Assembly: GCF_004010195.1 (NCBI RefSeq)
Contig: NC_057718.1
Span: 46,603,823-46,667,822 of the forward strand
Reading direction: 5' to 3'
Source: Chiloscyllium plagiosum
Lineage: Eukaryota
DNA: 64,000 nucleotides
How positions within the stretch are numbered: the first letter of the stretch is position 1; every line of letters begins with the position of its first letter. Shown here in pieces: positions 1,831-62,330 of this stretch. The notes under the pieces are model-generated. The model was given only the letters and a program-made list of their open reading frames with translations. It was not told the origin of the DNA and ran no database searches. The position numbers and the translations under genes were made by a program.

Positions 1831-2845
1831 TTCTAATTCTCATTTATGTGCTGTGCAACAACAGCATCTGAAAATACAGCAGATACGCAGTGATGACATC
1901 CAGCTCCATCAGATCGTGACTGGTTTTACCAGTAGTCAATCTAATATTCATGCAAAGTCATCACGCATGCTGCATCTAAGTCTGTCCCTTTAAGTTACTA
2001 TGTGCCCTCAAAATAAAGCTTTGAGGAAATTTATCACCACATCACTTGATTGTCCACAATTTCAGTGTTGTTAGATTATCAATATGAGAAGGTTTGAAGC
2101 TATTGTTTTCAGCCTATCCTTCAAACTCTTGTTATCTAACTATCAACTTCAACTCCCTTCCTGGCGACTGTCTCAAACGTAACCAGCAACCTTGACATCC
2201 TATTTGACCCTGAGCTGAAATTCCAATCCTATAAATCTCCAGCACCAAGACTGTGTTCTTTCACTGCTGTGGCCTACCCCTGCCTCAGCCCATCTGAGCA
2301 CCATCTAAATTTGTAAATAGTTCATTTACACATTCAGACATCTGGACCATATTGCAGGTAGATCTTAATAATTCTGAAGACAGTCCTACTAAATGTAGAC
2401 TACTGCACTTCAATTTTAGTTGGAGCTGCTGAATGCTTAAAGAAAGTCTTATCTGGAGAAGGTACATGGTAATAGTTGAATTTTGAAAAAAAAAATTAAA
2501 TGAAAAGTCAATAACACAATAAACTCCATGCTTTTGCTATCTCCAGCTTTAACTATTTTCATGCTGCTTTTCTCTATCTTGTACCTGCTACAAACTGGAG
2601 TTCATGCAAAACTCTGCTCCCTGTCCTGGAAACCCATTCCCCCTTTTGCTCACTGAATGTCACAGAGCCTGTCCTGGAACTCCATGATTTTAAAATTCTT
2701 ACACATGTTTAAGTTTATCCATGTTGTTAACTCTTCCTGCAGTCCAATAATCCTCAGAGATATCTTTTGATTCCTCCCCACTTGTCCATCTCAAACGTCT
2801 TTCACCTTGCCTTCTGGTAGTAATATCTGTAGCTATATGGGCCGA

Positions 2846-3008
2846 AGAGTTTGGTGCTGGAAAAGCACAGCCAGTCAGGCAGCATCCGAGGAGCAGGAGA
2901 ATCGACGTTTCGGACATAATTCCTGATGAAGGGCTTATGCCTGAAACGTTGATTCTCCTGTTCCTTGGATGCTGCCTGACCTGCTGTGCTTTTCCAGCAC
3001 CCCACTCT
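2846..3008. mobile_element. Palindromic mini-element made of two inverted Penelope-like termini, with a hammerhead-like core
   Basis: Left arm AGAGTTTGGTGCTGGAAAAGCACAG...GACGTTTCGGACATAA is the near reverse complement of right arm TTATGCCTGAAACGTTG...CTTTTCCAGCACCCCACTCT; CTGATGA at 2923-2929 and GAAA at 2943-2946. Confidence 0.8.
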
Positions 3009-3819
3009 TAACACTGCAAGGGCTCATCAGTTCATCAATGTTCACTTTGATGTAGGGAGATGGTGGGGATATAGCAGAGGAATGACTTGAGGAAGAGTGC
3101 TGTGTAGGGGCTTCAGGACACTGTGGGAATGAGCACGCACATCATTGAGCATAAGTCTGTATGTAGGCAAAGTTAAAACACTCATGTCTTTTTTCCCCTC
3201 ATTCTAAACATTGATTAAGATTAATGTACATTCTCTACTGAATTATTTAGATTAGTCATTTTCACAAGATTTACTGTGGCATAGCAACAGCACATGCACA
3301 AGCACATCTTGACAAAGAAGGCCATGTCTCTGCAAAGTAATGTCACCACTCTGTCAGGGTACATATTGTACTGCTTTTCAATTGCCACATCTTGGTAACT
3401 CTGTCATACTCGCCAAAGAGGGCAACTAGAGATCAATTCAACATCAGGGAACCACACACATAGTTGGGAATTGGACTCAAGGAACTATAAATAACTCTCA
3501 GGGAAATTAATGTTAATAATAAAGTTTAAGGGAGGATCTTGGATCTGGGATGTCTGATTGCGGGACACCGATAATGTGTCATATGAGACTGATAACAGAG
3601 TGTGTCAGTAGGTTCAAAACAAGAAAACATTTGTCAGGGGCTCTCAAAGCCATGCAAGAAAATCTAAGAGGATGAGGTTAGAAATGGCAATATTACATAT
3701 CAAGGTCTCATAATTTTCAACTTGAATGGAAAGAACAAAATTTTGTAAGCCAAGATATGGAAGCTAAGGCATTGCAAAGATATAGTGAAGGTTAGTTGCA
3801 TTCTGCAATACCACCGGGA

Positions 3820-7424: not shown

Positions 7425-7615
7425 TAGGTAAAAACAATGACTGCAGATGCTGGAAACCCACCCCCACCCCCACCCCCACCCTCCTCTAGCTTATCTCTCC
7501 ACGCTTCAGGCTCTCTGCCTTTATTCCTGATGAAGGGCTTTTGCCCGAAACATCGATTTTACTGCTCCTCGGATGCTGCCTGAACTGCTGTGCTCTTCCA
7601 GCACCACTAATCCAC
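7425..7615 (+). mobile_element. Short Penelope-like terminal insertion flanked by a 12-bp TSD
   Basis: AATTAAGATAGC at 7413-7424 and 7616-7627; contains CTGATGAAGGGCTTTTGCCCGAAAC (7527-7551) and a (CACCCC)n tract. Confidence 0.75.
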
Positions 7616-7627
7616 AATTAAGATAGC

Positions 7628-9095
7628 ATTGAGAGTGTGGTGCTGGAAAAGCACAGAAAGTCAGGCAGCATCCGAGGAGCAGGAAAGTTGACGTTTCAGG
7701 TCGGAACCCTTCATCAAGAATGAGACTGGGAGCCTTGGGAGTGGAGAGATAAATGGGAGGGGAGGGTGGAACTGGGGAGAAGATACCTGAGAGTGCAATA
7801 GGTGGTTGGAGGTGGGGGTAAAGGTGATAGGTCGGAAAGGAGGGTGGAGCGGATAGGTAAGAAGGAAGATTGACAGGTGGGACAGGTCATGAGGGCAGTG
7901 TTGAGCTGAAAGATTGGAACTGGGGTAAGGTGGGGGGAGGGGAAATGAGGAACCTTGTGAAGTTCACATTGATGCCTTAGGGTTGAAGGATCCCGAAGCG
8001 GAAGATGAGGTGTTATTCCTTCAGGCATCGGGTGGTGAAGAGAGTGGCGATGGAGGAGGCCCAGGACCTGCATGTGGCAGAGTGGGGGGGAGTTGAAATG
8101 TTCACCACAGGGAGGTGGGTTTGATTGGTGCAGGTATCTCGGAGAAGTTCTCTAAAGTGCTCTGCAAGAAGGCATCCAGTCTACCCAAATGTAGAGGAGA
8201 CCGCATCGGGAGCAATGGATACAATAAATGATATTTATTGGTGGATGTGCAGGTGAAACTTTGATGGATATGGAAGGCTCCTTTGGGGCCTTAGACAGAG
8301 GTAAGGGAGGAGATGTGGACGCAGGTTTTGCAATTCCTGCGGTGGCAGGGGAAGGTGCCTGGATGAAGGGTGGCTTGTTGGGGGCGTGGACCTGACCAGG
8401 TAATCGTGGAGGGAACTGTCTTTGTGGAAAGGGGATGGGGTGGGGAGGGAAATATATCCCTGGTGTTGGGGTCCATTTGTAGGTGGTGGAAATGTTGGCG
8501 GATGATGCGATTTCTGAGGAGGTTGGTGGGGTGGAAGATGAGGACCAGGGGGTTTCTGTCCTTGTTGTAGTTGGAGGGGTGGGGTTCGAGGGCGGAGGTG
8601 CAGGACATGGATGGGATATGTTGGAGGGCATCTTCAACCATGTGAGGGGAAATTTCAGTCTTTAAAGAAGGAGGCCATCTGCTGCGTTCTATGGTGGAAC
8701 TGGTCCTCCTGGGAGCAGATGTGGTGGAGGAATTGGGAATAAGGGATAGCATTTTTTGCAGGAGGTAGGTTTGGGAGGAGGTGTAATCCAGGTAGCTGTG
8801 GGATTCAGTTGGTTTGTAGAAAATATCAGTGTTGAGTCGGTCATTGTTGATGGAGATGGAGAGGTCCAGGAAGGGGAGGGATGGTCCAGGTGAAATTAAG
8901 GTCGGGGTGGAATGTGCCGGTGAAGTTGATGAACTGTTCGACCTCCCACATCAATGTAGTGGAGGAAGAGGCGGGGAGCGGTGCCGATGTAACTCTGGAA
9001 GATGGACTGTTCTACGTAGCCGACAAAGAGATAGGCATAGCTGGGGCCCATGCGGGTTCTTATGGCTACTCCTTTTGTCTGGAGGAAATGGGAGA
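7628..9095 (-). mobile_element. Penelope-like retroelement (RT C-terminus plus GIY-YIG endonuclease), left arm of an inverted structure
   Basis: NIIYCIHCSRCGLLYI (ORF 8152..8637) and NKDRNPLVLIFHPT..GTFPCHRRNCKTC (ORF 8291..8752); terminal repeat at 7631-7722. Confidence 0.88.
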
Positions 9096-19666: not shown

Positions 19667-22045
19667 GTAGGAACTTGCTTAGTGTTAATATCCACATTAG
19701 TATAATCTTTAGAGTGGAAAGGCCTTACAAATTAGCATAAACGGTGGCACTTTATGGTGCCTGCCATTATGTTTTTCTTCCTCTTGCTAGTCATCTTAGA
19801 GTCATAGAGATGTACAGCATGGAAACAGACCCTTCATGGTCCAACCCGTCCATGCCAACCAGATATTCCAACCCAATCTAGTCCCACCTTCCAGCACCCA
19901 GCCCATATCCCTCTGAAATTGTTGAGCTAACGGGGTGCAGCTAACCCTGAGTGTTTCTGGGCAGTGAGTGACAGTAAACTAATGTGAGGCTGAGATATCA
20001 TTGATACACTTTAGCTTAAGTGCTTAAAATCAAAGAGAATGGGAATCCCAGCTAATATTTCTTTCTCAATACAATTTTGGACAATGTAATTTTTCCTCCC
20101 ATGCAGTTTGGTGTGGACAGCATACCAATCCTTTATTAAACTAATACACAGAAAAGGGTGAAATTACAAAAGTAATCTGATTATGCAATTAGAATGACTG
20201 GTTAATACAACATACATATTATGTGGTTTTCACTAATCCATATTTGTTTTTTTTTTGTTTATTTTATACTATAAGCAAGTGCTCCCTATTTAAACATAGA
20301 TATAGAATGTAGAAATAAGAACAAAACAATGACTCAGCACGTCCGATAGCATTTGTGGATTGAGAACCTGTTAATATTTTGGCTGAATATTGCTTTACCA
20401 GTATGGTAGATTTTGATTATGTTCATCAATTTCAAGTTATATATTGGTATTATATAAATAATATACTAGTTGAAACATCTTTTAATCTCAGTTACATTTT
20501 AGCTGTGTCGACGTGATAAAAATACAGAATTTCCTACAGAATTTAACATCTATCTGGCCAGTTTAAACGACTAAATTAGTAGTCTGCCCTGCTAGTAACA
20601 TGAGATCCTTGTCAAAATGAAAGTTAAATGGCCTGAGTTTAGTAGACTCTGCTAAACTGAGTTACATGATAGCTAAAAATAACTTGGATTTTGAGAAGTG
20701 TATTATACATCCCTGGGCATTTTTAAGGCTTTAACATTGTTAAAGAAAGCACTTGCATTTACACAGTCCTTTCTACAGCCTCAAAATATCCCACAGTACT
20801 TTGGGATCGATCAAGTACTCTTGAAATTAAGTCACTGTTTAGGGTGTAAGAAATGTAGTGACAGTCAGTTGCACACATCAAGATCTCACACACAGCAGTA
20901 TGATAAACAGATTTTATTTTTAAGTTTTAATTGTTTAGAAGCACATGCTAAGATTGGATTAAAGCAAAGCCTCAGATTTGATCATGACTTGCAATATATT
21001 TTTCTTCAAATCAATTATTTTTGGTTGTGCAGTAAGCTCCACGCATATTGCGTTTTCATGTTTGCATGTTCACTCTGTAAACCTCTTACAAAGGTCATAA
21101 ATGAGTTCTGTGAATAGCATAGGCATCAGAGTTCTTTCCTTTGAGGTATAGGCAGTATTGGGGTGGTAAATTTCATATCCTCCCATGTCTTAAATAAACA
21201 CCAATTTAATTTAAGGAGTGTAGATAATCACCCAACACTTACATTGCGGTTTTCAAAAGGGATAAAAATTGACAAAATTTCATTTAAATTAGCTGCTTGG
21301 AGAAATGTCAAACCTGTAAAGATGTAGACAGATTTGCACTAACTTCTTACTTATGTTGAGCCTGCCACCAGCAGTAAGAAGAGGATTTTTAAAAGATTTT
21401 TGAGGAGAATTTATGGCACAAAAAGGGCAAGAAAACACTATTCTATCCATTAGTGTTGCCCCTATCTTTGCTACCATGCTCAGACGTCCACAATGCATGC
21501 TCCAGGAAAAGATAAGAATAATTTGTGGTACTTTTGGAAAGAAGTGAGGCATATCAATTCCAGTGCTGTAATGCAAACATACATTGGCAGCACCATATTT
21601 TAATTTGATTCCCTGCATATGGAGTTTTTTTTTGCAGTCCCCCATCCTTTCATAACGTTTATATTTTCTTTAATTACATCTTCAAGATCAATGTATGCCC
21701 TCTAATTTGATATTTCCTTCATTCCTGCACTGATTAAAGTATCAAGTTTTGAAGGTAAATTTAGAAATTAGATCTTCAAAATTGATTTATACTGCACACT
21801 GCCCTACAAATTCTTATAATAATTAAATAGATTAACCATTAATACAATGATATAAAGGCCTCTGGATGTATTTAAACATTACAGTATTTATCTATTTGAA
21901 AGTTGACTAACTTTGTTATAACTTATTAATTTTAGAAGTATGATAAAATCCATTAATGTGTTTTAATAAGGTATTGCACCTAGTATAAGTTATGTTGTTT
22001 ATTAGTTTTTCATGAAACATTAAGGGGGTAATTTGTGTTTTCCAG

Positions 22046-22557
22046 GCACCACATGCTTACTCATCATCTACAGAGCTTTGGCAGGAGTTGCATTGCCCGC
22101 TCAGAGATCCCGCATTGGTTCCATAGGACCTCGTTCTTTCCCTGTCCTCGGTGGCCATCCAGTTTTGCTCCTGAAACTTTAAGCCTGCATGGTTTTGGAA
22201 ATTACTTCCCATTCCACTGGAGACCACCTTTTCATTGGAGACCACTTTGTCATAGTAACCCACTGGTCACCTTTCACAGTGATTCATGGACAGGAGGCAG
22301 ATCTTTACACCAAGGCTTGAGTTCTTACTCAATAAATCAATCACCTGGTTGTTCCATGGAGCTAGTTGACAGTCAACCTCAAACTAAACGAAGAAAGTAT
22401 TCCCAACCAAATCAGGAAGAACGGAGCCCTACAGAATCAGAAAATGGAAGTCGTGCAACTTACAAAAATACTGGCTGTGTTACTTTTCCTGGAAATGAAT
22501 TGGAAAATTCATATGTCTCCAACGTGATTGAAGATCAAGAAACTCAGTGCACAAAAG
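22046..22557 (+). CDS. ANGEL2: ANGEL2 coding exon 2 (N-terminal region)
   Basis: Acceptor TTTTCCAG; HHMLTHHLQSFGRS..CPRWP..HWRPP..QPQTKRRK resembles human MFPHHSRSLGRD..CMRWP..NWRPP..EPSSKRRK; donor AAG|GTAATA, phase 1. Confidence 0.9.
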
Positions 22558-22674
22558 GTAATACTGTTTATAAAGTTTAATCCAGAGAATTAGATTTGAT
22601 TTAAATTATGAAGGCAAGTAATAAATTATAGCATCTATAAAGGTAATCGTAATTCCATTTGAAGTATATTTGCC

Positions 22675-25883: not shown

Positions 25884-26533
25884 AGTTTTGAGAAGGTTTG
25901 TATCTCAGTTGAGGTTCTGGATGTAGGTTTGCTCACTGGGCTGGAAGGTTCATCTTCAGATGTTTCGTCACCATACTAGGTAACATCCTCAGTGAGCCTC
26001 TGGACTAAGCACTGTGGATGTTTCCTGCTTTCTGTTTACATGTTTGGGTTTCTTTGGGTTGGTGATGTCATTTCCTGTGCTGGTCATTTTGTGTTCTTTT
26101 TCTCAGGGAGTTGTAATTGGAGTCCAAGTCAATGTGTTTGTTGGTAGAGTTCTGGTTGGAAGGCCATTCTCTCTCACTAGTATCCTTACATACAGATAAG
26201 GAAGGACACCATTTTAACTGAGACAACACATCCATCCTAGGACAAGCCAAACAGAGACATGCACGTGAATTCCTGGAATCATGGCATTCCAACCGGAAGT
26301 TATTCAACAAACACATTGACTTGGATTCCATTTACCATCCCCTGAGAAAAAGAACAGGAAATTACATCACCATTGGAAATGGCATCACCAACCCAAAAAA
26401 ACCCAGACAAATAAATAGAAAGCAGGAACATCAGCAGTGCTTCGTCCAGAGGCTCACTGATGATGTTACCTAGTATGGTGACAAAATGTCTGAAAATGAA
26501 CCTTCCAGCTCAGCGAGCAAACCTACACCCAGG
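25884..26533. mobile_element. Truncated Penelope-like element with inverted termini and an 11-bp TSD
   Basis: TTACTTTGGTG at 25873-25883 and 26534-26544; GIY-YIG C-terminal reading HTDKEGHHFN*DNTSILGQAKQRHAREFLESWHS on +; inverted copy of the 3' end at ~25917-26165. Confidence 0.88.
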
Positions 26534-27603
26534 TTACTTTGGTGTGGGTTATAGTGTCCATTTTGAATGTAGTTCAAAATAAATTTCGTTTCTTAAGGGG
26601 TTGGAGTACCTAAATGTATTGGGCTTCGTGACATAATGTGAGTAAAGGAACCCAAGTTGTTGTTTGGGTGGATATGTTTGCCCTCCTTTCCATTCTCTCT
26701 GCTGCTGTATGCCATTGGGTGCAACTGCTTCTGTAATAAGGATGCTGTGCTTTGCCAACTTTGCCTTTGAGGTCTTCAAAAATGTCTTATAACTATCAAA
26801 AGTACAAGTACCTTTGAAGGAAACCACAGTGTTCAGTTAAGTATAACAATACTATGCAGTTCAGTAATGCCACATATACTTAGCCGTTGCGTCTCCAATG
26901 CATGTACCATCACTTGCTGCAGTGTACTAACATGCCTGCATCTAATTTTGATTTTGAGCATTTTAATGTAATGTCAAGAAATATGGAAAAGGGCTTAGCT
27001 AAATGTTTGCGATTGTGTATGGCTCAGTTAACAAACATGTTGGTAACATGATGTGAGAGTCTTAACCTGCAACCTAGGTTGTCTATCTTTTTGGATTTCT
27101 ATTTGGGTACCCCATGGTTAGTGGAGTGAATAGTGGGCCTCCATTATTGACTCAGGACCTGGGACTTTGCTTGTGATGTGATGATAGTCATTAATCTAGG
27201 TATGATTTACCAGGTTTATTTAGGAATGGCACTTGGTTTTCTGTGAGCAGTTCATACATCAATTGTTATGCCATTTGGGGAGGTACGTATAAGGAATCCC
27301 TCAGAACTTTTAAGTTGTACCTAGTTATACATTTAATGGAATGATGTTATGTGTGCGCTACAAGTGTCCAGAAAGGATGATATCAAGTCTTGGTGTTGCT
27401 TAGACATTTTATGCCTTTTAAATTTAGAGCTTTTAACAAAGTAATCCAACAATAGTTCACAATGCACAATGCAAATAAACACCAGATAGGGTTTGGACAT
27501 TTTAAGAACTATGATTGAAAAGAGAGATTTTGTAATGGCTTTAAAGACAGACTGTGATGTGAATGCATTCCAAGAACAGGACCAGTTCTTCTGAAGGCTA
27601 CAG

Positions 27604-28244
27604 TGTTAGGTTCTTTTCTCAAGGTTTCACACACGAGATGCAATTCCCACACACCAACTTATGCAAACAGTTAAAAGTTATTAAAGCTTGTACAGGCTAG
27701 ATGACCTCTTTGACCCTCTTTGCAGGCATGCAAACTCGAGTCAAAGAGAGACCCCGAACAAAGAACACATCCTTTTATACAGGTCAGTTGGCAATGCTTT
27801 CAGATACTCTGGCCACTCCCCCATAGTCACATGCCACTCAAAACAACTCCCAGCCACTCCCTCACAGTCACACATTACCCCAAGTACATTGGTTAGATGA
27901 GATCATTTTTGGAGATAATGTAAATATAAATGCCCTTATCTTGGAAAATCATTATGCAGATGATTTCCTGACTCTGTTTCCCCAAGACAATGCAGGCACG
28001 ACACAACTAGCTTTGGGGGATGGCTATGAAGGCATTTCTGAATGGAAGGCACTGAATGATAGTTTAATTTGATAATAGTAAGGGAGTAGTGGCAAATTTC
28101 TGTCTAAATTGAATGGGAGTCATCCACATTCCTGCATGAATGTCATCCCCACACACTTTCAGAATGTTCAGTCAGTGCAGTTTAACCCTTTGATATTACA
28201 TTAATGTCCAGAGAGATATTACAAGTTAATCTTTTAACATAACA
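27604..28244 (-). repeat. 3' LTR
   Basis: Clearly homologous to 30867-31460, with an extra ~38-bp internal duplication; preceded on the minus strand by the polypurine tract AAAAGGGTGGAA (28245-28256). Confidence 0.92.
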
Positions 28245-28598
28245 TTCCACCCTTTTGTCATTCCATGATAACCACCTCGATGACACTACCAGCTTTCATA
28301 AGACTCTGACAGCCAGTATTTAAGCAAGTTATTGATATACAACATGCAATCTTTATAACAACAAAAATTACTCACCCATGCAGTAAATAGAACTTGGAGA
28401 ATCCTCCCACGTGGAAAAAAAGTTCACCAATAAAGTTCTTAATCCACAGTCCATAGTGACCAGTCCGTCCCCTTCGAGTCGAGTGGCAATGAGCCAGTTA
28501 TCCAAAACTTTCTTCAGTAAAGTCCACCCTGAAAACAAAATTCAGTCTATCTTTGCCCACCACTCCTTAATTCTTGGTAAAGGGCAGTTAAATGGTGA

Positions 28599-28923
28599 AC
28601 AAAACTAATGGACTTCCATCATTGCAGAGATGCTTCACATGGAGGATACTTCAGATGGAGTGTGAAATGCAGCAGCTGCAACTGCAGCAACAGCCTGGGT
28701 GAATGCATCATTCTTTCGCTGCGTCTGCTCCCACTCTGCTGTTAAGTGTAACAAAGCCAACTGGCTGTTGTGATGTTAGCTTCATCAGTGAACCGTCATA
28801 TTCCTTAAATGATTGAAAGACAAGGTAAAGCTCATGTGCTTTAATGTCCATAGGAAGGCCACTGACAAAAAGCGTACAGACCGCCTCTTCACCATCGTTA
28901 GTTTCTTCACTTTTCATGCTCAT
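28599..28923 (-). pseudogene. RBPMS2: Processed, internally deleted RBPMS2-like (RRM) retrocopy inside the LTR element
   Basis: [59 protein letters not shown] matches the RBPMS/RBPMS2 RRM; downstream shifted frames give AFTQAVAAVAAAAFH and YPPCEASLQ*WKS..FC, the family C-terminus; no introns. RBPMS2 versus RBPMS is less certain than the family call. Confidence 0.88.
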
Positions 28924-30845
28924 GATGGTGGAGCTGATTGGATCAGGTTGTGGAGGGGAGGGTGGTAGTCTGAAGGTGTGCTTTACCAGTGAATGGAGAA
29001 ACTCTAGAGACGATGTTAGCTACTGAAAGTATCTTTGCATTTCCTCTCTCATTCCTTCCTTTCCAAGGTGGTTATCAGTGTGATAACAGTCACACGTTTA
29101 ACTACACTCAATTATGTCTGCCTATTCCAACATTCTCAGTTGTCTTGAAGTTTGTTACTCGTTCACTATTTATGACATTATCAAGTTTTATACAATCCAT
29201 AGACTTCAAAATTTTACTGCTTAAACAATTCAGTCATTTATAAACAACAGTCAATGATCCTAAAATCAAGCTTTCGGATATCCCATTCAGGTTATTCAAA
29301 TTTTTTTTCTTTTTAACAAATTAATACTTGGCTAATGTGAAAGCTGTCAGGAAAAGTAGTTCAATAAGCTAGAATAGCAAGAAAACAACAAAATGTTTCC
29401 TGTGCTTAAGCCATTTAAGAGGCAGTTTCAGTTCAGTTTTAAATCTCAACTATTCATGGGAAACAAGTGCAGAATATATTAAGATATGTTCTCCAAATAA
29501 AACTTTCCAAATAAAATAGTCAGAATTACAGTGGCAACTCTAGTAGAGATTAATATTCTTTGAATTTACAATATGAAGGGGGCCAATGAAGTCTTAACAA
29601 TAATAGAAAGAACTTAAACAGCTCAGCTTAAGTTCTAATATTCTCTAAAATCTTAGCAAAACATCAAAATTAAAATGCCGTCTTCTTTTTGTGAACATTC
29701 TGCATTTTAAAAATAAGCAAAGATAATTTAATACAATAATCTCATCTGGCTAAGGCATGACCACTGACACAATTGTTTTTTAAACAGGCATTCTAGAATT
29801 TCAGACAAATCAGGGGCTCAAAGACCTCAATCAATTTATTTTAAGGTTTCAAGTTTGATCATTTAAAAAGGACATAATATTGTACAATTTTATTTAAAAA
29901 CAAAATCTGCCCTGTTATATAGCCCACATGACACACTGAATTGAGATTCTGATTCAAACAAGGCTAAACAGTCAATTAAAAGGATTTTCTAAACCAGGAT
30001 TTTAACAAACCAAAATATTTAAATATCAAACACTTCCAGTATGCCATAATTTATATTGAAACTTCCTTTTTTCAACCCAAGTGCTAGTACAACCTTAATT
30101 TCAGTGTTTCTCTTTTTTTTCCATTCTCTCAATGAAATTACACTTTTATAAAAAGAGAAATCCCTTGCAGTTGACCACATGGCACCGCAGTCCAAGCTCT
30201 CTTCCCCCCCAGAACAAAGACACATCGAGTTGAGTCCACAGCTCAGAAACTGAGACTCTCACAACAAAAGCCTGGACAAAGCTTCCCGTCAGTTAACGCA
30301 CTTCATTGTCAGGATCCGAGCAGACCGGCTCCACTTTCTCCCACATTTGCCAGTGACACATGCTGTCCTAACAGTACTTCTCAGGGGAGGTATGGGGGAT
30401 AAAGGCAATAACTCTAAGAAAGGGGGTGTGTGGAGAATAAAGGCGATAACTTCAAGACGTACCAGATTCTAACAATTTTTATTCCTGCTCTGGAGCCTCA
30501 AACCTCATGTTTGTAGAGGACTTTAAACTCCTTTTTTCCCTTGAGGACTTAATCCCTTTCTCACTTTACTTTTCATGGGGACTCGAACCCCATTTTTAGT
30601 CTTTATGTCAGGAGACTCTAACCCCAATCACAACCCAGGTTTGTGCAAAGCAACTTTGTGTGCAAGCGTGTGAGTGACCTCAAAGATTCCGTCACTACCA
30701 AGTCCCAGCAGACGAGGGGTCGATTGAGTATTAAATTTAGAGAGAGAGATCAAGGTGAAGCTTATCTTGTGGGCGCATCCATCTTACGCAACCAATACTC
30801 CGATGAACGATTATTCAATCTACCTGGAAGCTCCGTGTATGTTGG

Positions 30846-30864
30846 AATCCCACCACTGCCACCA
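30846..30864 (-). other. Primer-binding site complementary to the tRNA-Leu 3' end
   Basis: Minus strand TGGTGGCAGTGGTGGGATT, 2 nt from the 5' LTR; the plus strand equals the vertebrate tRNA-Leu(UAG/AAG-type) 3' end AATCCCACCACTGCCA plus CCA. Confidence 0.88.
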
Positions 30865-30866
30865 TA

Positions 30867-31460
30867 TGTTAGGTTCTTTTCCCGAGGTTTTACACACGAG
30901 ATGCAATTTGCACACACCAACTTCTGCAAACAGTTAAAAATTTATTAAAGCCTGAACACGCTGTGTGACCCTTTAACCCTCTTTGCAGGCATGCAAAGTC
31001 GAGTCAAAGAGAGATCCTGAACAAAGAAAACACATCACCTTTATACAAATCAGTTGGCAATGCTTACAGATACTCTGGCCACTCCCTCACAGTCACATGT
31101 TGCCCCAAGTACATTGGTAAAATGAGATCATCCTTGGAGATAACGCAAATATAAATGCCCTAATCTTGGGGAATTGTTATGCAGACGATTTCCTGACTCA
31201 GTGATCCCCCAAGACAATGCAGGTGTGACATACCTAGCTTTGGGGATGGCTATGATGGCATTTCTGAATGGAAGGCACTGAATGATAATAGTAGGGGAGT
31301 AGTGGCAAATGTCTGTCTAAATGGAGTGGGAGTCATCCACATTGCTGCATGAATGTTGTCCCCGCACACTTTCAGAATGTTCAGTCAGTGTAGTTTTAAC
31401 CCTTTAATATTACATTCATGTCCAGAGAGAGATATTCCCATTTAATCTTTTAACATTACA
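30867..31460 (-). repeat. 5' LTR
   Basis: Homologous to 27604-28244; on the minus strand TATAAA (~31039-31044) precedes AATAAA (30941-30946); outer end is either 31455 or 31460. Confidence 0.92.
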
Positions 31461-32589
31461 GTAATACCCACCAACAGGATCAAGAGATGGAGGAGGACTT
31501 AATGACTTAAATATTGGAATCAAATCGATTAAATATTTGAACGTTGTAGAGATGGAGGAGTGTAAGGAGTTCAGGTTTCATAAAGGCCATTGAGGGCATT
31601 TTGAGTTTTTTTTTAAATGAGGACCTGGATTTTTGTTGAGTTGGGTCAACTTCAGAGACTTTTACAAACGGTGGATAGGACGGATTCTGAGATTCCCATC
31701 TTCATTTCAATTTCGGATAGCTTGCCTGTACACTGCGCCCACAAACTGGCTGCTTCCATTGCAGGGGTAAGCACCTTGGGCATTATATGCACTCCCACAA
31801 TTTTATTGGACACTAGGCAGTTTCTATAGGATATGATGTTCATGACCTGTGAACCAATTCTGGATTCAGAAACCTATTAATAAGTAAGAGTAAAACGTCT
31901 TACACTACCCCTTGAAATGTTGTATGTCTTCTTACATACTCGTGTGCCACCCCCACCCCTAGCTGCAGCCCAATGCTCCATGCCCATTCAATTAGTATGC
32001 TTTATTTACTGAAAGGTAGCCATATAACAATAGTGACAAGTGTTTAAAATACCTAGTGAAATGAAAAGTGTCTGGAGTTGCGCTATTGCTCTTACAATCC
32101 TATAAAACCAGACACAGCTATTCACAGTATCAGTAACAGAAGCTTTACTCTTTCTCATACTGCTTATTTTTGTCCAAATAAGCCCACATATTGAAACATT
32201 ATATCTAAGGAAGAAAAATTTACTTTCACTGCATGAAGATGTCAGTCATCAAAGCTAACGCTGTCATTTTAAATTGTGCAAATAGACCGTTGCTGAGCTG
32301 ATTATGCTAGTGGTTCTTGGAACTCTGCCAAGCATTCACGACAAGGCTATTTGGCAACTGCATTAATAAAAACAGATGGCCAGATATCTCGTTCGTGAAG
32401 TGGCCTCATAATTTTCAAAAGAATTACTCCTTTTTTGAAATGGTTAATCACTTTCAAAGAATTCAACAAGACTTAACTTTGAGAATCAGTAACGTGTATG
32501 ACATTTTTACCTTGACCTTCACCACTACCTCTCTTGGGTCCTCCGTTATTTGTGGATTATCATGCTGCTTATTTGATATTCAGCACTGG

Positions 32590-54107: not shown

Positions 54108-54272
54108 CTTTCTAAACTCCCAACTCCATTTTATTTTCTTCATAAAAGGGTGGTATATCTTAAAGCAATCAGCTATATATACTTAGTATTCTGAAATGAA
54201 TCCAGCAGGTGCTAGTAGACAGTTGTCAGTTTTGATCATGAAAATGCTTTTTGTCTTGTATTTGTTCTACAG

Positions 54273-54691
54273 GTTATCATTGTGAATACAAAATGCGAAC
54301 AGGAAACAAGAGGGACGGCTGCGCTATTTGCTTTAAAAGATCAAAGTTTTTGCTCGTCTCGGCTAGTCCAGTAGAATTCTATCGCCCTAAGATTCAAGTA
54401 CTAGACAGAGACAATGTAGGACTGGTACTACTGCTGCAACCAGTTCTTCCACAATCTGCTGCCTTTCTGTGTGTGGCAAACACTCATCTCTTGTATAACC
54501 CACGACGGGGAGATGTCAAGCTGGCGCAGCTTGCAGTACTCTTAGCTGAAATTAACAAATTGGCAGCTGATGGGAAAGGTGGATATTGGCCGATAATCCT
54601 GTGTGGAGACTTTAACGCCGTGCCTGATTCTCCATTATACAACTTCATTAGGAATGGGAAGCTGGTTTATGATGGACTTCCAATTGGAAAG
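54273..54691 (+). CDS. ANGEL2: ANGEL2 coding exon 5
   Basis: YHCEYKMRTG..DGCAICFK..DRDNVGLVLLLQP..CVANTHLLYNPRRGDVKLAQL..CGDFNAVP..GLPIGK; acceptor TTCTACAG, donor AAG|GTACTG, phase 0. Confidence 0.97.
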
Positions 54692-57600
54692 GTACTGCCA
54701 ATAATTTCAAAACATTAACATGGGAAGATGCTTAGTCCTTGGTTGATACTATTTTTAATTAAGAAAAATAGCCAATCTTTTTATTTAATGAAATTTAAGA
54801 TTCTAAAGTTCTCTTGTGTTTAACCATCACACTACAATGGAAATATAAGATTTTATTGAAGAAAAACTTTGCAATCACTGACGATGTTCTTACTTTATAG
54901 GATCCAAGTAGGTTAATTTGATATCTAATAGAAAGTGTTGCTCTAGAAAACGTAATGGATAATTTCTGATAAGATGCTCAGAGATGAAGATTTTGTGGTT
55001 TGTGGTCTTGAACACTAGATAGTTCCTGAAAGCCTTCATCCTGTTGGACAGATCCGTTACATTTATGTGAAAAATCAGGGCCATATAAAAACACACCCAA
55101 AATATTAACTTCTCTGCACCAATTTTATTTGGAAGTATTGAGAAAATAACTTTTTAAAAAGCCAAGTGCAAAGTTCCAATAAAATGAACCTGTCTCTCTC
55201 ACTTTGGTTGAGAGATAGTTTTTACCTCCTTTAAATTCAAAGGACACAGAGTTGGAAGGATATTGTGGACAACTTTCTCAGCAATCTGTTGCTACCAAAT
55301 TGGGTCACTTAAAATACTGTTGTATGCATTTGCTAAAACTGTGCACTTTTCCAGGATGTCCTGGAGTGAAAAGTTAACTCCAAACTTGTTTTCTGTTCTG
55401 CAAACTACCTTAAACCTCTTTCCCCTGTTCTATCCACTCTCACCTCCAACAAGTGCAAAGAGTTCAGGGATGTTTTTGTCACTAAGATCAAGACCATTCG
55501 ATCACCTGCCTGTGCTATTTCTCTCCATCCTATTAACCCTCAGGGCCAAACTTCCTCAATGCATTCCCCTGCCCTCGATCTGAACATTTTGTATAATTTT
55601 TCTTCTGTCTCCCAACATTCCCATTCAAAGTTAACCTTGTCTGTGAGACCCATCATCTCTTCCTTCAAGCCTATATGTATTGTTGATCATGCATCATCTC
55701 CTCCTGACTTCTGTGTTCCCCAATATTATGAATGGTTCTACCTTTTAACCCTTGGTGTTACAGTGATCCTGAGTTAAGCTTCCAGCCTCCTATTCATACC
55801 ATCAGACAGATGACTTATTTCCTCCTCCATAACTGTCCACTTGTAACTGTCTCAGCTCATTTGCTGTGGAAACCCTCATTTGTGCCTCAAGTTCCTTCAA
55901 GACTCAGCTGTTATAATGCATGCTTGGTTGGTCTCCCACATTCTACCTCAATTAACATTATCATATACAACCCTATTGCCTGTGAATTAATTCACAGAAA
56001 ATCCTGTTCCCTGATCCCTCCTACGCTAAACTCCAGTCAACATCTGATTTTAGATTTGCCATACTTGGTTTCAAATCTTTTCTTGAACTTACCTCTCCCA
56101 ATATCTGTAATCTCCTTGATCCTTGCAACTCTCAATGATATCTGATCTCATTTATTGTGCTTCCCTAGTTTAATTGCTTCACCATTGGTGGTCATGCTTA
56201 TATTTGTCCAGGCCTCTAGCTTTGTAATACCCTCTTTATACCTTTTCTTCTACCACATTTCTTCCTTTTAGATACTCATTGAAACCAAGCTTGTTTCAGC
56301 TTTTGATCACCTGACCGAATATCTCCAAATGTGGCTCAATGTTTTGGTGTCACTCTTTGGCTTTGTTTGATGATACGCCTACAAAGTGCCTTGGGATGCT
56401 TCATTACATTAAAGCCACTATATTCTTTTAAATTGTTGCTGTTGTAAGTTCAAATAAAAACACAGGCTGTATTTTCTAATATTATTGCTGTTTGCATGGA
56501 TTTGCCCTTGTGACAACTAATGGGCATTTTATTTTATTCCAGTAAATTTCAGAAAAAGTGTCACGTTTTTAACCACTGGTCAGTTGGATTTTTCGCAAGT
56601 AATTTAAACTATGTTTTGTCATTCCTTTAGACAACTAAAACACGGTCTCAGAATAATGGGTAGGCCACTTAAGACTGAGATGAGGCAGTTTTTTTTAACT
56701 CATTTTTGGAATTCAATGCCCCAGAGAGCTGTAGAAACTTAATCATTGAATACATTCAAGACAGAAATTGATTTCTACGTATGAATGACTTTGAGAGTTT
56801 CATTTAATTGTTCAATATAATTGACAATAGTAGAGGTTTATTGTAATAACAATATATAGAATTTGTATTTGTTCACTCAAATTTTACAGCTGAATTTTAT
56901 TGGCATTATTGCAACTTTGGTTATCATTGTCATTTGTCACCTGATGGTTGAATTTTCATGAGAACAATGATTGTTGCTTATTGTGTTTCAACAACATTCT
57001 GCCTATACTGTTATGTAACAAAACCAACAAGACTTCAAATCGGTCAATTTGCTAGTTAAAATTTTCTTCTGATTTTACTCCCAGGTATAGATTAGAACAT
57101 TTACCATATATCATCCTGGCTGTCTTCAATTCACCAGTTCAGGGAAACAAAATGAGATTAGGTATCAGTATTTAGTCTGACCCCCGAATAGCAAATATTA
57201 TTCATGTAGTCTTACCGAGAAAACAAAGACATTTTGTCAAAGTTTTTGCCTTGTTCTCATCAGGACATTTGCAAGAATATCAGTGTAAAGGCAACTGCAC
57301 TTTATACTATGAGAGCAAAGTGTGCTGATTGGCTGGCAAGTGAATTCTGGTCAGTAGAGGGTCCAGGTGCGCATTTTTTTTGTGAGAGCATTATTTTAGT
57401 TTATTATTGTCTATAAAACTCTTACACCATTAGCTCCCCATATTCATGAAATCAAAACTAACCTTCTTTATCCTTAATTAATATATCCATCACTTATTCC
57501 CATGTTCCATTAGGTCTCAACCATCCTTTCAAACCTTATTAGATAACAATACTGATCAAGTTTCATTTCTTTTCGTGGAATGAACTAAGGAATAATTGTC

Positions 57601-62134: not shown

Positions 62135-62330
62135 GTGGTATTGGAAAAGCACAGCCTTCCGGCAGCATCCGAGGAGGAGAGTCCACGTTTCAAGCATAAG
62201 CTCATTCCTGATGAAGAGCTTATGCTCAAAACGTCAAGTCTCCTGCTCCCTGGATGCTGCCTGACTGCTGTGCTTTTCCAGCACCACACCTTTTGACTCT
62301 GATCTCTAGCATCTGCAGTCCTCACTTTCT
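62135..62330. mobile_element. Palindromic Penelope-terminus mini-element
   Basis: Same architecture as 2846-3008; CTGATGA at 62208-62214 followed by the GAGC-TTAT-GCTC hairpin. Confidence 0.75.

Follow-up and report, generated by a model that had tools for sequence, protein, structure and literature searches.

Spliced RBPMS2 sequence carried by a multi-copy, retrovirus-derived element in the bamboo shark Chiloscyllium plagiosum

How does a spliced host mRNA come to lie between two long terminal repeats (LTRs), and what becomes of it there? This question is raised by a provirus at 31460-27604, on the minus strand of a 64,000-nucleotide stretch of Chiloscyllium plagiosum DNA (hereafter the window), which lies antisense in an intron of ANGEL2 and carries between its LTRs a segment resembling the RNA-binding protein gene RBPMS2. 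An initial annotation, made from this sequence alone, had proposed that an LTR element captured a host mRNA, and the retroviral signals that frame the segment were found as described. The LTRs, both with TG...CA ends, occupy 30867-31460 (5′ LTR, 594 nt) and 27604-28244 (3′ LTR, 641 nt) and are 89.9% identical, the aligned columns comprising 526 matches and 59 mismatches. A primer-binding site (PBS) at 30847-30864 matches, in 17 of 18 positions, the 3′ end plus CCA of the tRNA-Leu (AAG/TAG) genes of the same genome, and a polypurine tract (PPT) at 28245-28256 adjoins the 3′ LTR. All of these features, like those described below for the element, are on the minus strand.

The donor is the host RBPMS2 gene on contig C40, found via the annotated bamboo-shark RBPMS2 protein (P0001), to which its exons correspond at 100%; it has eight exons with AG/GT borders, extends over 106 kb and encodes a protein of 194 amino acids. 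The insert in the window copy, at 28944-28402, corresponds to host exons 1, 2, 3, 4, 6, 7 and 8 at 79-92% identity and has no introns. Alignment with the host gene places a remnant of exon 1, with about 20 nt of 5′ untranslated region (UTR) and an ATG at 28923, at 28882-28944; exons 2 and 3, joined without introns to the greater part of exon 4 and encoding a truncated RNA recognition motif (RRM) that matches Pfam RRM_1, at 28709-28881; the 3′ part of exon 6 with exon 7, which holds the C-terminal motif, at 28589-28707; and a piece of exon 8, up to the 3′ capture junction, at 28402-28588. A deletion has removed all of exon 5 and the larger part of exon 6, and an extra base lies at its joint. 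The splice joins are precise, five of them in the window copy and all seven in longer copies elsewhere (class A, below). Since the UTRs match host RBPMS2, the parent is RBPMS2 and not RBPMS. The RBPMS-like frame matches solved RBPMS/RBPMS2 RRM structures in the PDB (E about 4e-21), and a search for longer homologous proteins found none. Thus the intronless segment, its ATG and its C-terminal motif stand as the initial annotation described them, but the RRM is not uninterrupted, as it covers profile positions 1-57 of 70 and the frame stops at 28708; nor does the segment span 28599-28970, since the real mRNA also includes the 3′UTR exon 8, and the putative 5′UTR is mostly a remnant of integrase.

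The window copy belongs to a large family. Searching with the insert gave 580 first-look candidates, of which the best 40 were scored, all being full length and 81-84% identical, the window itself aside. In each of the 30 loci of the window type that were fetched (class C), the exon 4-to-6 deletion is present, and a 19-nt probe over the deletion joint, which recovered 27 of these 30 known loci, had 452 matches against 10 for a reversed control. A protein search also revealed intronless copies with a complete RRM. Twenty such longer copies, picked by protein similarity, fell into class A, which has all eight exons (7 copies, two of them shortened by later insertions), and class B, which lacks the end of exon 6 to the start of exon 8 (13 copies). 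Probes for the junction between reverse transcriptase (RT) and 5′UTR in classes A and B and for the intact exon 4/5 join had 20 and 19 matches, respectively, and none in the controls, so that class C outnumbers copies with an intact RRM by roughly 20 to 1; we estimate the family total at 450-600 copies. All three classes keep exons 1-4 and part of exon 8, and classes A and B have the 3′ junction, the PPT and the integrase remnant in common with class C. Among 14 elements with hand-placed ends, a 4-bp target site duplication (TSD) is exact in 7, agrees in three of four bases in 5 and in two of four in 2; solo-type LTR matches have an exact 4-bp TSD in 10 of 30 cases. Instead of a one-off insertion, we thus see hundreds of loci with common element-RBPMS2 junctions, which bears out the multi-copy, non-autonomous family that had been suggested.

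The class C deletion joint is also present in the gene models P0002 (Chiloscyllium), possibly not independent of the genome analysed here, and P0014 (Hemiscyllium), and class C is therefore common to two genera. P0014, a 332-residue model annotated as low choriolytic enzyme-like (astacin type), has a class C RBPMS2 fragment as its first ~100 residues and is either an annotation chimera or a case of exonisation of a proviral copy into a hatching-enzyme gene. Separately, three class A copies lie within 112 kb on contig C26 (L086 at 40839585, L097 at 40889378 and L090 at 40951690), and an insertion at one 3′UTR position in two of them suggests local segmental duplication.

The nature of the virus was read from relatives that lack RBPMS2. 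The class A copy L085 retains an integrase core (rve, E=1.5e-7), and a search with it gave 20 loci, 15 of them without RBPMS2 within 1.5 kb. The RBPMS2-free relatives that we examined carry RT, RNase H, integrase, an integrase C-terminal domain of the murine leukaemia virus type and then env-like sequence. RVT_1, RNase_H and rve exceed the Pfam cut-off, as does MLVIN_C in L169 (below it in L146 and L156); for env, TLV_coat appears in L169 alone, which is of another lineage, with E=0.007, below the cut-off, and gives no match in L146, L152 or L158. By eye, we also recognised in the relatives ISD-, CX6C- and anchor-like motifs, which may be those of a gamma-type env. Of ten loci with Gag_p30, only L141 has any segment, a short one, in common with class A/B copies, and the window copy has none in common with any of the ten. 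The TG...CA LTRs, the tRNA PBS, the PPT, the order RT-RNase H-integrase in the relatives and the 4-bp TSD, a length typical of class I endogenous retroviruses (ERVs), all point to a derivative of a class I-like (gamma/epsilon-like) retrovirus, so that the term LTR element was apt if less exact than it could be. The interior of the window copy has no retroviral ORFs (open reading frames), as had been noted, but it does hold retroviral relics. At 28961-29092 lie two fused integrase remnants, an N-terminal piece with HTDxHLGKEG and a C-terminal piece, 76-86% identical to the RBPMS2-free relatives; at 28257-28401 lies an env remnant from the region of membrane anchor and tail, of which 28388-28295 is 81% identical to such a relative.

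At the junctions, virus and host share short sequences. In class A/B copies, the insert is preceded on its left by RT, which has CCCCTC(C) in common with the host 5′UTR, as seen with relatives L153, L156, L160 and L163; right of the insert lies the env membrane-anchor region, and TGGGAGG is common to the host 3′UTR and the env of L146. The 5′ junction, read in class A/B, thus has 6-7 nt of microhomology and the 3′ junction 7 nt, while a shared run of at least 7 is expected at random in 5 of 10,000 position pairs (5e-4). Judged by these comparisons, the RBPMS2 mRNA took the place of the viral sequence that begins inside RT and stops shortly ahead of the env membrane anchor, and microhomology at both ends is what template switching would leave. 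Class C has lost the RT piece and most of the 5′UTR by a further deletion, and a short TGC-containing motif is shared by the ends of the exon 4-to-6 deletion. The same junctions bear on whether a processed pseudogene made by a long interspersed nuclear element (LINE) inserted into an older provirus that then amplified. Cartilaginous fishes have many LINE retrocopies (bioRxiv 10.64898/2026.06.26.734816), but this origin is very improbable here: neither a poly(A) nor a TSD was found at the insert edges, in agreement with the initial annotation; the match stops about 208 nt into exon 8, a 3′UTR exon that runs on in the host; and the insert is bordered by two viral regions that do not adjoin each other, RT and the end of env, with microhomology. 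The preference for LTR-mediated capture over a LINE-made pseudogene was therefore sound.

Acutely transforming retroviruses are known to acquire host genes by fusion of a provirus with the gene. On this model, a provirus inserted in or just upstream of RBPMS2 exon 1, a DNA deletion or read-through fused RT to the 5′UTR, splicing then acted on the hybrid transcript, and only the 3′ junction arose by switching, the later history being unchanged. The 5′ junction does lie near the transcript start, and DNA deletions also leave microhomology; however, neither LTRs nor interior relics of the family were found within 200 kb around the host gene, including 66 kb upstream of exon 1, though the fused allele may have been lost or may have existed in somatic cells, and Tan et al. 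2016 (PMC5131818) usually saw products of two switches, each marked by microsimilarity. We consider an origin of this oncogene-like kind unlikely.

The LTRs of the family are mosaic as well. The LTR that follows the PPT in the 30 class C loci is of a majority type in 21, of the class B type in 5 and of the window type in 3, with none in 1. The majority type does not align to the window LTR; together with its PBS and leader, it is 73-78% like an RBPMS2-free provirus on contig C2, which has rve, MLVIN_C and env-like sequence and whose integrase is just about 69% identical to the family remnant. We infer that the LTR was swapped by recombination with a second helper ERV lineage during co-packaging. 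The second and third PBS types of the family are presumably tRNA-Ser, and multi-copy sequences matching them were found. In the window copy, the retroviral leader at 30663-30846 is about 71% like the leader of longer family members and partially matches the RT-bearing relative L165. Class C leaders contain a tandem repeat of 55-57 nt (L033:4897-5261), which has grown to about 1.5 kb in L034 (3142-4672) and of which a relic lies at about 30575-30635 in the window.

We next turn to whether the captured gene was of any use to the element. Nonsynonymous and synonymous variants were counted against the host gene with a fixed transition bias. Over the first 71 codons of 30 class C copies, private variants comprised 82 nonsynonymous changes plus 3 stops versus 31 synonymous changes (ratio 1.07), and variants found in at least 4 copies numbered 18 versus 6 (ratio 1.17; 0.86 without CpG sites). 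Private variants of the 20 class A/B copies gave a ratio of 1.41. These counts suggest a ratio of nonsynonymous to synonymous rates (dN/dS) of about 1 across the family and no purifying selection, with low power on the replicating branches; neutral decay after insertion is expected of any dead provirus. The tyrosine codon of the FTYP motif is a stop in 17 of the 30 class C copies and one step from a stop in 10, and encodes Tyr in 2 and Cys in 1. As the stop is at one shared codon, most class C copies derive from a template whose ORF had already ended. All 20 class A/B copies contain a stop or a frameshift. Damage is slightest in the class A copies L098:5969-7006 and L085:5931-6897, which have one frameshift and one stop each and ORFs from ATG of 240 and 181 codons, respectively. 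The marks of a functional retrogene are therefore lacking, there being no intact ORF in the window copy or in the 20 class A/B copies and no purifying selection. The suggestion that the family spreads an RRM module is not supported by these data, as its main form lacks the end of the RRM, has the shared stop and changes at coding sites as fast as at silent ones. Of the checks that had been proposed, the search for copies with an intact RRM did reveal some, though with broken ORFs, and dN/dS gave no sign of selection.

A useful captured sequence could nevertheless have driven the expansion, either as a protein, full or truncated, made from RNA spliced at the env acceptor, or as an RNA signal directing the transcript to oocyte germ-plasm granules. 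The ORF lies in sense downstream of a putative env acceptor (at about 28988, recognised by motif and altered in the window copy), exons 1-4 and the exon 8 piece survive in every class, zebrafish rbpms2a mRNA goes to the Balbiani body (PMC6049948), and ERV captures in crocodilians are under purifying selection (PMC4299795). Against this, private and shared variants both have a dN/dS of about 1, class C with its shared stop exceeds the intact-RRM copies some twentyfold, and the retention of those exons depends on only two deletion events. Locus-specific expression was not seen in four sequencing runs, whose reads, with neither strand nor start shown, speak neither for nor against transcription from the LTR: X8 had no reads, X7 had 60, nearly all partial and 90-95% alike, i.e. 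from other copies, and X1 and X2 gave short contigs mostly of other copies. Usefulness to the element is hence quite unlikely in our judgement. We give a similarly small chance to the more specific idea that the captured piece of oocyte mRNA served as an RNA address to germ-plasm granules, by which the element out-replicated its relatives after the ORF broke, hopping between helper lineages by LTR and PBS exchange. Rather, dN/dS of about 1, the shared stop and the predominance of the ORF-broken class argue that RBPMS2 in class C is a passenger.

The family is old. Median LTR-pair divergence is 12.6%, measurable in 21 of 40 long loci. A tree of 50 rows, L026 having been omitted because it nearly duplicates another, has a star-like shape in which support is good for 3 of 47 inner branches and class relationships are not resolved; its median tip of 0.069 is about half the median LTR-pair divergence, and the host branch is 0.036. 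From tip length, LTR divergence and host branch, we conclude that the burst came soon after the capture and that both are old.

Taken together, we regard as very probable, and as the best explanation of the whole, that a spliced RBPMS2 mRNA was co-packaged, joined to viral sequence by template switching and amplified by helpers as a passenger. A class I-like retrovirus in the ancestor of carpet sharks would have co-packaged the mRNA, which is plausible in the germ line because zebrafish oocytes hold abundant maternal RBPMS2 mRNA, that of rbpms2a being localised to the Balbiani body (PMC6049948). The RT enzyme would then have jumped from env to the 3′UTR and later from the 5′UTR to RT, so that almost the whole of env was replaced, together with the end of pol. 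Here the spliced donor, the replaced interval and the microhomology are seen directly, and the switching is our proposal for them. The resulting defective provirus retained LTRs, PBS, leader and PPT, and helper proviruses would have copied it in the germ line, to which the directly observed dispersed copies with TSDs correspond. Later recombination may have added an RNase H-integrase piece upstream, the two internal deletion classes, an AT-rich insertion and the LTR/PBS swaps, in an order that we can propose in part; the deletion classes and mosaic LTRs themselves are plain in the alignments. The shortest, ORF-broken class amplified most, its RBPMS2 being probably a passenger that now decays neutrally, as the broken ORFs attest.

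Several observations weigh against this explanation or weaken it. The 5′ junction of the window copy is a secondary deletion, the primary 5′ microhomology being read from other copies, and the integrase piece precedes the RT piece, an order that requires at least one rearrangement that is unexplained in detail. No intact helper provirus was identified. The flanks of the window copy, TTAC and CTGT, form no clean TSD, though there may be a cryptic one, in which CTGT overlaps the first bases of the LTR. Class C is not monophyletic on a short alignment (4 changes), though it may have had a single origin. Finally, the tree has almost no internal length and so gives little power to detect selection in the replicating phase, and near-fixed differences from the host gene are few and silent-rich (1-3 nonsynonymous, 3 synonymous), though confounded with evolution of the host gene itself; given these differences and the star-like tree, a brief early function of class A is compatible with the data.

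The process itself is already known. Tan et al. 2016 (PMC5131818) described an LTR-mediated mechanism of retrocopy formation with a median of 6 bp of microsimilarity at switch points, citing HERV-K/FAM8A1 and maize Bs1. The shark family resembles those retrocopies in its replaced ORFs, microsimilarity, lack of poly(A), retention of both LTRs and further non-autonomous rounds, and it shows what defines an LTR-mediated retrocopy, an intronless mRNA between LTRs with bare insert edges. However, those retrocopies are mostly young, partial and low-copy, whereas the shark family captured the full coding sequence, is old and shows stepwise deletion classes plus LTR exchange; sharks are not among the species named in the part of that paper available to us. 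In megophryid frogs, ERV-GA.a-Lle elements with a gamma-type env likewise carry an intronless host gene at high copy number in an anamniote, namely OGFr, which is highly expressed in ovary and present in 2331 of 4552 copies (bioRxiv 10.1101/2021.11.23.469661). There, OGFr lies within the pol ORF, env is mostly kept and spread is ascribed to reinfection, whereas the shark element is non-autonomous, holds a complete mRNA, UTRs included, in place of env and the end of pol, and in its commonest form has lost the ORF. The crocodilian elements CrocERV29 (KIT ligand) and CrocERV31 (nectin3, replacing env) also captured host mRNA and co-copied it, but in nine and six copies with ORFs reported to be under purifying selection (PMC4299795), in contrast to the hundreds of shark copies, in which 0 of 20 are intact and dN/dS is about 1. 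The main text of the frog study, which includes Chiloscyllium ERVs, mentions neither RBPMS nor RRM, and that of a preprint on retrocopies in 244 genomes (bioRxiv 10.64898/2026.06.26.734816) does not mention RBPMS; the supplements of either might list the family. A full-text literature search, which does not cover repeat libraries (Repbase, Dfam), found no publication on an RBPMS2-carrying shark ERV, and the capture is apparently unreported for this gene and lineage.

Other features of the window can be noted briefly. An AT-rich segment at 29100-30220 is common to class C copies and unmatched in the four class A/B copies tested; it has no Pfam or Rfam match, the searches covering the interior of the window copy in six frames (Pfam) and 26500-32500 (Rfam) likewise giving no matches. 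A single-copy host source was not found for it, the best 40 of 627 candidates being just 79-85% matches, and it is possibly a second captured host sequence. In L048, this 1.1-kb segment breaks the N-terminal region of integrase. ANGEL2, on the plus strand, spans 22032-54715, where the ANGEL2_N match covers 22032-22577 and an EEP exon lies at 54242-54715. A near-palindrome of 616 nt, with arms 85-90% complementary, lies at 25917-26532, 1 kb beyond the 3′ LTR, and further palindromic repeats are at 2845-3009, 7468-7777 and 62135-62287.

For a cartilaginous fish, the family records the capture of a gene by a retrovirus in unusual completeness, as a fossil series in which the donor gene, uncaptured relatives, both junctions, three structural classes and a switch of helper and LTR are all held in one genome. 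Several hundred decayed RBPMS2 copies inflate the numbers of retrocopies and mislead annotation, as in the gene models P0002 and P0014. Other shark genes with many retrocopies can be examined by the same test. The top parents in cartilaginous fishes, MIPOL1, SUDS3, SDF2L1, SLU7 and ZNF276, are not housekeeping genes (bioRxiv 10.64898/2026.06.26.734816). Their retrocopies may be ERV-amplified captures like the RBPMS2 family, and ERV-borne captures may account for several of the most retrocopied shark genes now ascribed to LINEs. Moreover, a captured gene can reach a very high copy number without protein function, which calls for caution in the adaptive reading of OGFr-like cases.

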